DNA of 20,498 bases, taken from a virus. Taxonomy: Duplodnaviria > Heunggongvirae > Uroviricota > Caudoviricetes. Location of the stretch: the IMG/VR virus record IMGVR_UViG_2877280126_000007. One strand, written 5' to 3'. Both the position numbers and the translations under genes were made by a program. Positions 7,143-7,937 of this stretch are shown here, one piece after another. The notes under the pieces are model-generated. The model worked only from the letters and a program-made list of their open reading frames with translations, had not been told where the DNA came from and searched no databases. Each line of letters begins with the position of its first letter. Position 1 is the first letter of the stretch.

Positions 7143-7339
7143 GATTATGCTTCCTGTGATTTACTGTTATCGCTGCCTGTCACAATAGGTTGCTTTAATT
7201 CTTCCTCATCACTCACTCCTGCGACGCTCCGTGGCAGGGCCCCCCACAGGAGTACCTTGTAAATGTAAGGTGTTTAAGCCTAAATTAAGTCGTATCACGG
7301 TTAAATAGCAAAGAAAAATTCACAGAAGGAAAGACATTG

Positions 7340-7849
7340 ATGGAGTGGATAAATGCTTTGATGAACTATTTTGTACTTCATCCATATCGCCTATGGGGGC
7401 TTCTTTTTATAATAGCGTTCACAAAATCCACTTTACTCATTTCGGCGATATTGCCACCAGCATCAATTATGATGGCCACTGTAATTACAGTCAGCAAGAC
7501 GACTCTTTCACCATGGGAAGCTGGAATCACGGTCATGAGTGGCGCATGGTGCGGTACTATCGTTAATTACCATCTTGGTATAATAATTGGGCATATCCCT
7601 CAACTTGCATGTATAATATCAAGCCGTTCCAATACAATAGAACGGGTTCGCCTTCAGTTGCAAAATAACTCTGTGTCAATACTTTTCACTTCGCGCTTTA
7701 TCGCCGTGCTGCGTTATATTGCTCCTTTGGTGGCAGGAATGTTGCAACTTCATCCAGTGAAAGTGTATACAGTGAGTCTGATTTCAGCTGCTAGCTGGTC
7801 AGCACTTTATGTTGGTAGTTTTAGCTTCGTGTTGCCTTTTTTTAGCTAA
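7340..7849 (+). CDS. DedA/YqaA-family small inner-membrane protein (moron)
   Basis: 169-aa hydrophobic ORF with a DedA-like motif (…FTSRFIAVLRYIAPLVAGM…). AAGGA Shine-Dalgarno 8 nt upstream of the ATG at 7340. AT-rich, and on the opposite strand between Rz and terS, the position bor occupies in lambda. Confidence 0.55.
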   Translation: MEWINALMNYFVLHPYRLWGLLFIIAFTKSTLLISAILPPASIMMATVITVSKTTLSPWEAGITVMSGAWCGTIVNYHLGIIIGHIPQLACIISSRSNTIERVRLQLQNNSVSILFTSRFIAVLRYIAPLVAGMLQLHPVKVYTVSLISAASWSALYVGSFSFVLPFFS

Positions 7850-7937
7850 ACTGCCCATAAAAAGCTCTTGCGAATCCAGCTTCCCCCATTCCTCTGACAA
7901 CAGAATCTGATTTGAAGGATAATGAGTAAAATTACCG

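Follow-up and report, generated by a model that had tools for sequence, protein, structure and literature searches.

The nearest positional counterparts of the locus described here are the accessory genes bor of phage lambda and borD of the prophage DLP12, which lie on the strand opposite to the late operon (rzpD(+), borD(-), nohD(+) in DLP12). Expression of bor in the lysogen is established. By protein family, the closest described systems are the DedA proteins, which have central roles in the recycling of lipid carriers, in envelope integrity and in resistance to colistin, and most paralogues of which have no assigned substrate. In YqjA and YghB, residues E39 and D51 are involved in proton binding and R130 and R136 in phosphate binding, and the D51A and R136A variants are non-functional (PMC9881974; bioRxiv 10.64898/2026.09.20.752871).

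Within a window of 20,498 nucleotides (the whole stretch of DNA analysed), the surrounding prophage of which is a defective, IS-riddled lambdoid element of the Shigella flexneri / E. coli type, we identified a gene predicted to encode a DedA-superfamily inner-membrane protein (7340..7849, plus strand; 169 aa from the ATG). This gene separates two genes that neighbour each other in related phages, namely the terminase small subunit gene terS to its left (6378..7142, minus strand; phrog_370, E=7.5e-95) and the Rz i-spanin gene to its right (7938..8420, minus strand; PF03245, E=1e-29; phrog_13; RefSeq start 8408). Gene calls bear out the opposite-strand position between terS (7142) and Rz (7938) given in a preliminary description of this DNA, and the likening of this position to the "bor" slot agrees with the placement of borD between rzpD and nohD; like bor, the gene is an accessory one that is absent from related phages. 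We favour the reading, to which we assign a probability of about 0.6, that the locus is a horizontally acquired moron cassette of ~0.6-0.74 kb encoding a DedA protein of the COG0586 branch, for which a lipid-related envelope role is proposed.

The open reading frame at 7340-7849 is a real gene and not a chance frame, a possibility named earlier as one that would refute the reading. The protein matched the VTT/DedA family PF09335 with a score of 52.4 bits (gathering cut-off 33.9; E=9.2e-14), aligning residues 41-161 to profile positions 3-121 of 123 (119/123 covered), and VTT_dom was the sole match in a Pfam search of the protein. This confirms the DedA membership previously proposed; the motif then singled out, SRFIAVLRYIAPLVAGM, is the block in which conservation within the subfamily is highest. 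The 169-aa product is hydrophobic, as described (GRAVY 0.87, with several hydrophobic helical segments), and comparison with three Citrobacter homologues gave dN/dS values of 0.15-0.24. Furthermore, at a threshold of at least 90% the subfamily has 38 conserved positions, of which the prophage protein retains 35, and where it departs from conserved residues the changes are few in number and conservative. The noted AT-richness relative to flanking phage genes was also recovered, with a GC content of 0.418 (GC3 0.382) for the open reading frame compared with 0.49-0.53 (GC3 0.46-0.57) for terS, Rz, R and terL; GC content over the whole window is 0.505. An AlphaFold model (pLDDT only 74) is all-helical, with breaks at residues 36-40 (LPPA) and 119-123 that coincide with the expected hairpin tips. 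Foldseek searches of the model against PDB and BFVD returned no match at E<=0.001, the best viral matches being weak ones to giant-virus "SNARE associated" proteins, and a sequence-profile search of the PDB likewise returned no match, there being no solved DedA structure for superposition.

The listed frame extends over 7337-7849 (plus strand) from a TTG start, with an alternative ATG at 7340, and the RefSeq version of the protein (WP_011069285.1, 170 aa) begins at the TTG at 7337. Because the TTG is absent from Kosakonia homologues, we take the ATG at 7340 to be the conserved start. A Shine-Dalgarno-like AAGGA (7326..7330, plus strand), which reads AGGAG in homologues, is found 9 nt 5' of this ATG, in keeping with the claim that the frame possesses its own Shine-Dalgarno. 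As to the suggestion that the gene had not been described, a literature search (prophage- or phage-encoded DedA; the accession) found nothing specific to the protein, but RefSeq already labels WP_011069285.1 a "DedA family protein".

Comparison of junctions identified a segment (7150..7892) standing where related phages have a short Rz-terS spacer. For example, homology to Klebsiella phage ST16-OXA48phi5.2, in which the slot is empty, ends at window position 7149 and restarts at 7948, the spacer measuring 208 bp in that phage versus 798 bp in the window, with identities of 88.6% and 77% in the flanks. Among 13 Klebsiella phages possessing the same terS (~88% amino acid identity), none carried the gene, and some related phages were found to hold other cargo in this slot. 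On the left, the junction is immediately upstream of the start codon of terS, and the right junction falls within a small open reading frame (7799..7948, minus strand) that follows Rz in related prophages and is conserved in an O157 prophage and phage Kati. In the window this frame is a truncated remnant, homologous only at 7893-7948, with the remainder consisting of cassette DNA. Positions 7150-7264 are unique to this prophage type; the 7143-7270 segment was not significantly structured when the late-transcript strand was considered (z=-1.2) and contained no meaningful repeats, and an Rfam scan identified no RNA family in the region. Deposited phage genomes contained no DNA match to the gene, and only protein matches of at most 30% identity, mostly in records resembling host DNA.

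Inside this segment we identified a conserved mobile cassette of 595 bp (7265..7859, plus strand) comprising 75 bp upstream, the coding sequence and 10 bp downstream, which shares 82% nucleotide identity with a C. youngae prophage and 77% with C. meridianamericanus. In the C. youngae prophage the cassette is situated between GH19/holin genes and a GpA/DUF1441 terminase (an open reading frame adjoining it there was tested as an Rz homologue and is not one), and in a third prophage it is situated between DUF2514/lysozyme and Terminase_2/6N genes. The lysis and terminase families of these two backbones are unrelated, and the slot and orientation are the same as here; at least three lambdoid prophage backbones thus carry the cassette, each time with lysis genes on one side and packaging genes on the other, and each time in antisense orientation relative to the late operon. 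Given the empty slot and other cargo in relatives, and the same cassette in two other unrelated backbones, the moron reading of the preliminary description is supported by sequence comparison as well as by position.

A neighbour-joining tree built from the recovered homologues unites the three prophage copies as sister to a Kosakonia/C. meridianamericanus clade. Such a grouping would be consistent with a single acquisition event, with a Kosakonia/Citrobacter-type chromosome as the donor, after which lambdoid phages exchanged the gene via this slot. The subfamily is small and confined to Enterobacterales, with chromosomal orthologues in Kosakonia, Enterobacter, Serratia, Arsenophonus and Riesia; its occurrence even in Arsenophonus and Riesia, which are reduced endosymbionts, speaks for an autonomous role in the cell. 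None of the eight DedA paralogues of E. coli K-12 is of this type. The gene is rare in E. coli (6/5426 complete genomes) and was found on at least 1000 contigs, mostly of Shigella. The cassette illustrates how temperate phages have moved a DedA paralogue between enterobacterial genera, and into Shigella and E. coli. At 16 loci with IS breaks at differing places the cassette was intact in every case and at least 99% identical, including three decayed loci in which terS has been lost right up to the cassette edge. Such an intact gene in decaying prophages could reflect recency alone.

To place the protein among DedA branches we considered the scores of E. coli paralogues against the subfamily profile, which were 69.3 bits for YabI, 61.7 for YqjA, 56.6 for DedA, 54.1 for YghB and 45.4 for YohD, all of COG0586, and only 10.1 for YdjX, 8.8 for YqaA and -1.6 for YdjZ outside it. 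On these scores the protein is assigned to the COG0586 branch (YabI, YqjA, YghB, UptA), to which the undecaprenyl-phosphate flippases belong. The label "YqaA-like" previously attached to it did not survive this comparison (8.8 bits versus 45-69 for COG0586 paralogues), and the YqaA/COG1238 branch was rejected both on that score and on the presence here of an arginine pair that is missing in YqaA (PMC9881974). Scores against the NCBIfam equivalogs DedA PRK10847, UptA NF052604 and NF052605 were 31.0, 19.9 and 16.3 bits, far under the respective cut-offs of 236, 250 and 300, and the protein accordingly does not qualify as an orthologue of the named DedA or UptA equivalogs.

Alignment with YqjA and YghB revealed a distinctive combination of residues. 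R119 and R125 correspond to R130 and R136 of the second re-entrant helix, and K29 and A41 correspond to E39 and D51 of YqjA in the first; K29, P40, A41, R119 and R125 are invariant across 48 subfamily sequences. As aligned, both acidic residues essential in classical DedA proteins (E39 and D51) are absent, with lysine and alanine in their place, and transport of the classical type may be absent without them. The subfamily represents a natural experiment on the proposed mechanism, in which the phosphate-binding arginines are invariant and the proton-binding glutamate has become an invariant lysine.

These substitutions bear on one alternative, which we regard as improbable, namely that the protein serves the phage, either in superinfection exclusion or immunity, or by modulating the timing of lysis or the membrane potential, perhaps by forming a proton-uncoupled, dominant-negative heterodimer with a host DedA protein. 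The gene adjoins the lysis cassette in three prophage backbones, and its hydrophobicity and helical model point to an inner-membrane protein. Moreover, DedA proteins have been modelled as dimers with the re-entrant hairpins bearing E39, D51, R130 and R136 at the interface (bioRxiv 10.64898/2026.09.20.752871), so that a paralogue with lysine at the E39 position could pair with host subunits. However, in every case the gene runs antisense to the late operon, so that it is not co-expressed with the lysis genes, and no known defence family was matched (PADLOC models gave no hit). The subfamily is also conserved chromosomally in non-phage contexts, including reduced endosymbiont genomes, which suggests that the K29/A41 state is ancestral and functional rather than a phage-specific inactivation.

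Examination of the upstream region provided only partial evidence for independent transcription. A -10-like hexamer, TTAAAT (7301..7306, plus strand), is a putative core promoter element and is kept in 6/6 Citrobacter-type and mobile copies. It is not accompanied by a recognisable -35 at 16-18 bp and was absent from the output of a strict sigma-70 scan, which found no consensus promoter between terS and the ATG. Likewise, a terminator scan after the stop codon found no terminator-like hairpin, and the fold of 7843-7945 was unexceptional against shuffles (z=0.44). Lacking a consensus promoter and a terminator, the locus qualifies only in part as an independent transcription unit. A PhoP box, (T/G)GTTTA-N5-(T/G)GTTTA, was considered and dropped, the best upstream site having 3 mismatches and the window 57 matches versus 40 expected, which is near chance. 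A direct repeat, TTTAAG-N5-ATTAAG (7273..7289, plus strand), located 11 nt 5' of TTAAAT, resembles a PmrA/BasR box and is treated as a lead only.

This repeat underlies a second alternative, about as unlikely as the first, that the gene is a Mg2+- or cationic-peptide-linked conversion gene, the product of which would act together with divalent-cation or lipid A-modification pathways and which in Shigella would be induced by BasR/PmrA, raising tolerance to polymyxin or antimicrobial peptides by recycling the undecaprenyl phosphate freed in L-Ara4N transfer. The box fits the published consensus CTTAAG-N5-XTTAAT (PMC3973317) and is the sole match on both strands of the 20.5 kb (0.07 expected), although 7 of 100 shuffles likewise yielded one match. 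The 11-nt gap to TTAAAT resembles that of the E. coli arnB promoter (CTTAAG-gttaa-GTTAAT, 10 nt, TAAAAT), the -10 assignment of which is our own reading. In the Citrobacter and third-prophage copies the repeat reads TTTAGG-N4-ATTGAG; with weaker half-sites and a 4-nt spacer in both other prophage copies and in Citrobacter, the box cannot be counted among the conserved features of the cassette, and the G-to-A changes that create it are also consistent with AT drift of the Shigella copy. A link to Mg2+ is suggested by genomic context, given that orthologues adjoin an MgtE Mg2+ transporter gene controlled by an M-box riboswitch at 16/17 Enterobacter loci and 6 Arsenophonus loci. Conversely, this linkage is not seen in Kosakonia, Citrobacter, Morganella or reduced Arsenophonus genomes, and it is mgtE rather than the DedA gene that the riboswitch controls. 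Also in favour of this alternative, Klebsiella DedA mutant phenotypes are rescued by Mg2+/Ca2+, and colistin resistance requires DedA proteins (PMC9881974). A more elaborate reading would make the protein a previously uncharacterised "Lys-type" DedA transporter that flips or scrambles undecaprenyl phosphate, or some other anionic lipid, without proton coupling. Perhaps ancestrally Mg2+-linked (as the M-box-MgtE adjacency would suggest), it would in Shigella have been rewired under BasR/PmrA, so that a prophage gene would tune lipid-carrier recycling and antimicrobial-peptide tolerance during infection. This reading is more speculative still and we give it little credence.

Comparably remote is the explanation that the gene is a neutral hitch-hiker, intact only through recent acquisition of the prophage and contributing nothing in Shigella: the prophage around it is defective, the scans recovered neither consensus promoter nor terminator, and the Shigella copy has the longest branch with a dN/dS (0.24) slightly above other pairs, but this value is still far under 1, changes at conserved positions are few and conservative, and none of the 16 differently decayed loci has a damaged copy, the three with terS lost to the cassette edge included.

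Returning to the favoured reading of an acquired moron cassette, transcription in the repressed prophage would start at an activator-dependent promoter belonging to the gene itself, and the protein, probably dimeric, would insert in the inner membrane. At that site it may bind an anionic lipid phosphate or move it across the membrane, the candidates being undecaprenyl phosphate and an anionic phospholipid; such transport would operate without classical DedA proton coupling. Shigella and E. coli could in this way gain a missing type of DedA paralogue, altering envelope or lipid-carrier homeostasis. If the protein is active, proton coupling would be dispensable for some DedA functions, and an additional envelope-modifying gene would be counted among the lysogenic-conversion factors of Shigella; if it is inactive or unexpressed, the gene would represent ordinary cargo that is already correctly named in RefSeq.

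Compared with known systems, the locus resembles bor in arrangement and the COG0586 proteins in its product. Bor is a small outer-membrane lipoprotein, whereas the protein encoded here is predicted to be a polytopic inner-membrane member of the DedA family; homology to Bor was rejected, VTT_dom being the only Pfam match, and the resemblance is one of position. With COG0586 proteins and B. subtilis UptA the protein shares the full VTT/DedA core and the R-F-x-x-x-x-R-x-x-x-P-x-x-A-G motif of the second re-entrant helix, including both arginines. In contrast to E. coli DedA, it is shorter by ~28 residues at the N-terminus and ~47 at the C-terminus, and it differs from COG0586 proteins in the replacement of E39 by an invariant lysine and of G50-D51 by Pro-Ala, with S52 kept. 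YabI and the nearest relatives outside the subfamily keep the glutamate and likewise lack the aspartate. E. coli YqaA, for its part, is similar in its small size and in having non-acidic residues where E39 and D51 would be.

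The open reading frame lying between terS on the left (6378-7142, minus strand; phrog_370, E=7.5e-95) and Rz on the right (7938-8420, minus strand; PF03245, phrog_13), with a phage lysozyme gene on the far side of Rz, is listed on the plus strand either as 7337-7849 from a TTG or from an ATG at 7340 (169 aa). Because the TTG is absent in Kosakonia homologues, the ATG was taken as the conserved start; it is preceded by a Shine-Dalgarno sequence (AAGGA, 9 nt upstream). With a score of 52.4 bits (gathering cut-off 33.9), the predicted protein matches nearly the whole of the Pfam profile for the DedA/SNARE_assoc domain (VTT_dom, PF09335), and it is hydrophobic (GRAVY 0.87), with multiple hydrophobic stretches. 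An AlphaFold model based on 48 homologues is all helical (pLDDT 74, pTM 0.67). Comparison with three Citrobacter homologues yielded a dN/dS of 0.15-0.24, and the protein keeps 35 of the 38 positions conserved in at least 90% of the subfamily, with conservative changes at the other three. Together, these findings exclude a chance frame in a spacer. The coordinates, strand, Shine-Dalgarno sequence, hydrophobicity and DedA-family membership given in the preliminary description are confirmed, as is its AT-richness, the ORF having a GC content of 0.418 and GC3 of 0.382 versus 0.49-0.53 and 0.46-0.57, respectively, in four neighbouring phage genes.

Comparison with related phages supports the first proposal that the DedA segment is a moron. 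Klebsiella phage ST16-OXA48phi5.2 represents an empty site: its alignment with the window ends at 7149 on the terS side (88.6% identity) and resumes at 7948 on the Rz side (77%), and the two parts lie 208 bp apart in the phage versus 798 bp here. The gene is likewise absent from 13 Klebsiella temperate phages with the same terS (~88% amino acid identity), whose slots are occupied by other small genes. The right junction falls at ~7885-7892, within a small post-Rz ORF of an O157 prophage and phage Kati. A portable unit at 7265-7859, comprising 75 bp upstream, the coding sequence and 10 bp downstream, shares 82% DNA identity with a Citrobacter youngae prophage and 77% with C. meridianamericanus. 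In two other backbones the same slot holds this cassette, again antisense to the late genes: in the C. youngae prophage its neighbours are a lysis cassette of holin and GH19-endolysin type on one side and DUF1441/GpA terminase genes on the other, and in a third prophage they are DUF2514/lysozyme and Terminase_2/Terminase_6N genes. In a neighbour-joining tree the three lysis-slot copies grouped together as sister to a Kosakonia/C. meridianamericanus clade, with the Shigella branch longest. Most simply, the gene would have been captured once from a chromosome of the Kosakonia/Citrobacter type and then exchanged between lambdoid phages by way of the lysis-terminase recombination hot spot. At the 5' edge of the C. 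youngae cassette (L003, 7800-7927) we also identified a stretch with 80% identity to the lysozyme 3' end and the beginning of Rz at window 8415-8542, a remnant of a lambda-type R gene in a prophage with a GH19 endolysin. A 161-175-aa ORF beside the same cassette was tested as an Rz homologue and rejected.

A subfamily profile was scored against all eight E. coli K-12 DedA paralogues (sequences from the K-12 record). Those of COG0586 scored 69 (YabI), 62 (YqjA), 57 (DedA), 54 (YghB) and 45 bits (YohD), compared with 10 and -2 bits for YdjX and YdjZ (COG0398) and 9 bits for YqaA (COG1238). The window protein is therefore a DedA superfamily member derived from the COG0586 branch, and of the earlier label "DedA/YqaA-like" only the first half is retained. 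This branch is home to undecaprenyl-phosphate flippases, with a signature of two acidic residues in the first re-entrant helix (E39 and D51, proton binding) and two arginines in the second (R130 and R136, phosphate binding) (Todor et al., PMC9881974). In our alignment, R119 and R125 of the window protein correspond to the arginine pair and the serine at S52 is retained, whereas K29 aligns with E39 and P40-A41 with G50-D51; K29, P40, A41, R119 and R125 are invariant among 48 subfamily sequences. D51A, R136A and S52C each abolish YqjA function (bioRxiv 10.64898/2026.09.20.752871). The window protein thus lacks one defining functional feature of its branch. It is also ~50 residues shorter than classical DedAs and scores far under threshold against the NCBIfam equivalogs DedA and UptA. 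The nearest relatives outside the subfamily are YabI-like, YabI retaining the Glu but not the Asp.

This Lys-type subfamily is small: a search of 1.84 billion cluster representatives returned only 15 proteins at E<=1e-10, with canonical Glu-type DedAs starting just under this group. All seven full-length hits retrieved (~170 aa) contain (G/L)KS..LPPA(S/Y), and one more is apparently frameshifted. A profile search and a species-by-species scan (one genome each) confined the subfamily to Enterobacterales, with amino acid identities to the window protein of 72% in Kosakonia, 57-78% in Citrobacter, ~50% in Enterobacter/Lelliottia and ~42% in Arsenophonus, and further members in Hafnia, Serratia, Morganella, Proteus and the louse endosymbiont Riesia. 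That reduced endosymbionts retain the gene, and that the motif residues are invariant, speaks for the Lys/Ala state being ancestral and functional, and against decay. No Lys-type protein occurs among the eight K-12 paralogues, and a DNA search of 5426 complete E. coli genomes found the gene in just six; the exact window protein is present on at least 1000 contigs, mostly of Shigella flexneri. The six cassette-bearing "E. coli" genomes, including FDAARGOS_943 and O121 201805972, are rich in IS1, IS2, IS600 and IS911, have broken prophage genes, and resemble Shigella or enteroinvasive E. coli.

Chromosomal orthologues occupy varied contexts. The Kosakonia copy is flanked by an EF-G paralogue and an L,D-transpeptidase-like gene, and that of C. 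amalonaticus lies close to the dcm/vsr region. An MgtE-family Mg2+ transporter gene adjoins the orthologue in 16 of 17 Enterobacter loci (divergent) and in six Arsenophonus loci (tandem), a neighbourhood common to two distant genera in differing orientation; an M-box riboswitch precedes mgtE at these orthologues (L087 4512-6537; L089 6001-8050; L025-L046). Two Citrobacter copies, those of C. freundii and C. meridianamericanus, adjoin dinI at an apparent prophage end, the former lying next to icd. An 82-kb C. freundii "plasmid" (NZ_CP056259.1) carries a 74%-identical copy immediately adjacent to icd, rluE, mnmA and purB, with dinI, an Ail/Lom gene and an ars operon alongside; this record resembles not a plasmid but a piece of chromosome in which a prophage ends at the icd attachment site.

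Building on the family, residue pattern, mobility and orientation established here, we propose that the protein would be inserted in the inner membrane and, as with YqjA, would probably be dimeric. There its arginine pair may hold the head group of an anionic lipid, which could be undecaprenyl phosphate or a phospholipid. Replacement of the proton-binding Glu by Lys and the lack of the Asp suggest action without proton coupling, such that the protein may be a facilitator or scramblase and not a PMF-driven flippase. Expression from the repressed prophage could then alter lipid-carrier or envelope homeostasis. Alternatively, the protein might serve the phage itself, for example in exclusion or the timing of lysis, or as a dominant-negative partner of host DedAs.

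Strict scans detected neither a sigma-70 consensus promoter between terS and the DedA ATG nor a terminator past its stop codon, and a transcript, if produced, would converge on the late operon. A TTAAAT in a conserved upstream block is kept in six Citrobacter-type and mobile copies with no usable -35, which suggests a putative activator-dependent promoter. In the Shigella copy only, TTTAAG-N5-ATTAAG lies 11 nt upstream of TTAAAT, the sole YTTAAK-N5-NTTAAK match in the window (0.07 expected). This repeat nearly matches the PmrA/BasR consensus CTTAAG-N5-XTTAAT (PMC3973317), and it is spaced from the putative -10 much as in the arnB promoter of E. coli. TTTAGG-N4-ATTGAG stands in its place in the other copies, so the Shigella repeat could be a by-product of AT drift; we consider a genuine PmrA/BasR box unlikely and keep it as a lead only. 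A second rival to altered envelope homeostasis is a specific Mg2+/BasR-linked role in antimicrobial-peptide tolerance. A PhoP box was also sought upstream of the gene and found no support.

The window prophage is defective. An IS2-like element (8925-10255; HTH_Tnp_1 and rve ORFs) sits within the last codons of a P21-type class II holin gene (10256-10453; PF04971), 8924 being joined directly to 10256 in IS-free loci, and the lysis cassette is therefore disrupted. The expected Rz1 o-spanin is predicted as a 68-aa ORF in another frame inside Rz (7982-8188, minus strand), with a lipobox-like LIMVVGC. One IS110-family transposase gene and four IS3-family ORF pairs, three of the same size (100 aa + 272 aa), crowd the right half (10690-11886, 12486-13690, 14397-15553, 16012-17168, 19342-20498), typical of Shigella-style IS expansion. 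An Rfam sok antitoxin RNA match (18091-18266, plus strand; 117 bits) points to a hok/sok type I toxin-antitoxin in the early region; together with QueH (17347-18033) and an IS-truncated DUF1367 gene nearby, it belongs to an early-region remnant inverted relative to E. coli FDAARGOS_943. Across 16 Shigella/E. coli loci with varied IS insertions and truncations, three of them without terS up to the cassette edge, 7150-7938 was intact and at least 99% identical in every case, which fits selective retention without proving it. The last rival is a neutral passenger.

The RefSeq name of the gene is already "DedA family protein"; our literature search turned up no publication about this protein or about DedA genes carried by prophages. 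As far as we can tell, the phage mobilisation of a DedA paralogue, the delineated Lys-type COG0586 subfamily and the recurrent placement of its gene in the lysis-terminase slot are new, and the cassette merits modest follow-up. Neither the moron concept nor the bor slot is itself new, both being textbook knowledge. In the K-12 annotation of DLP12, borD (minus strand) lies opposite to and between rzpD and nohD (both plus strand), the positional equivalent of the DedA slot, which bears out the bor-slot position originally assigned to this gene.
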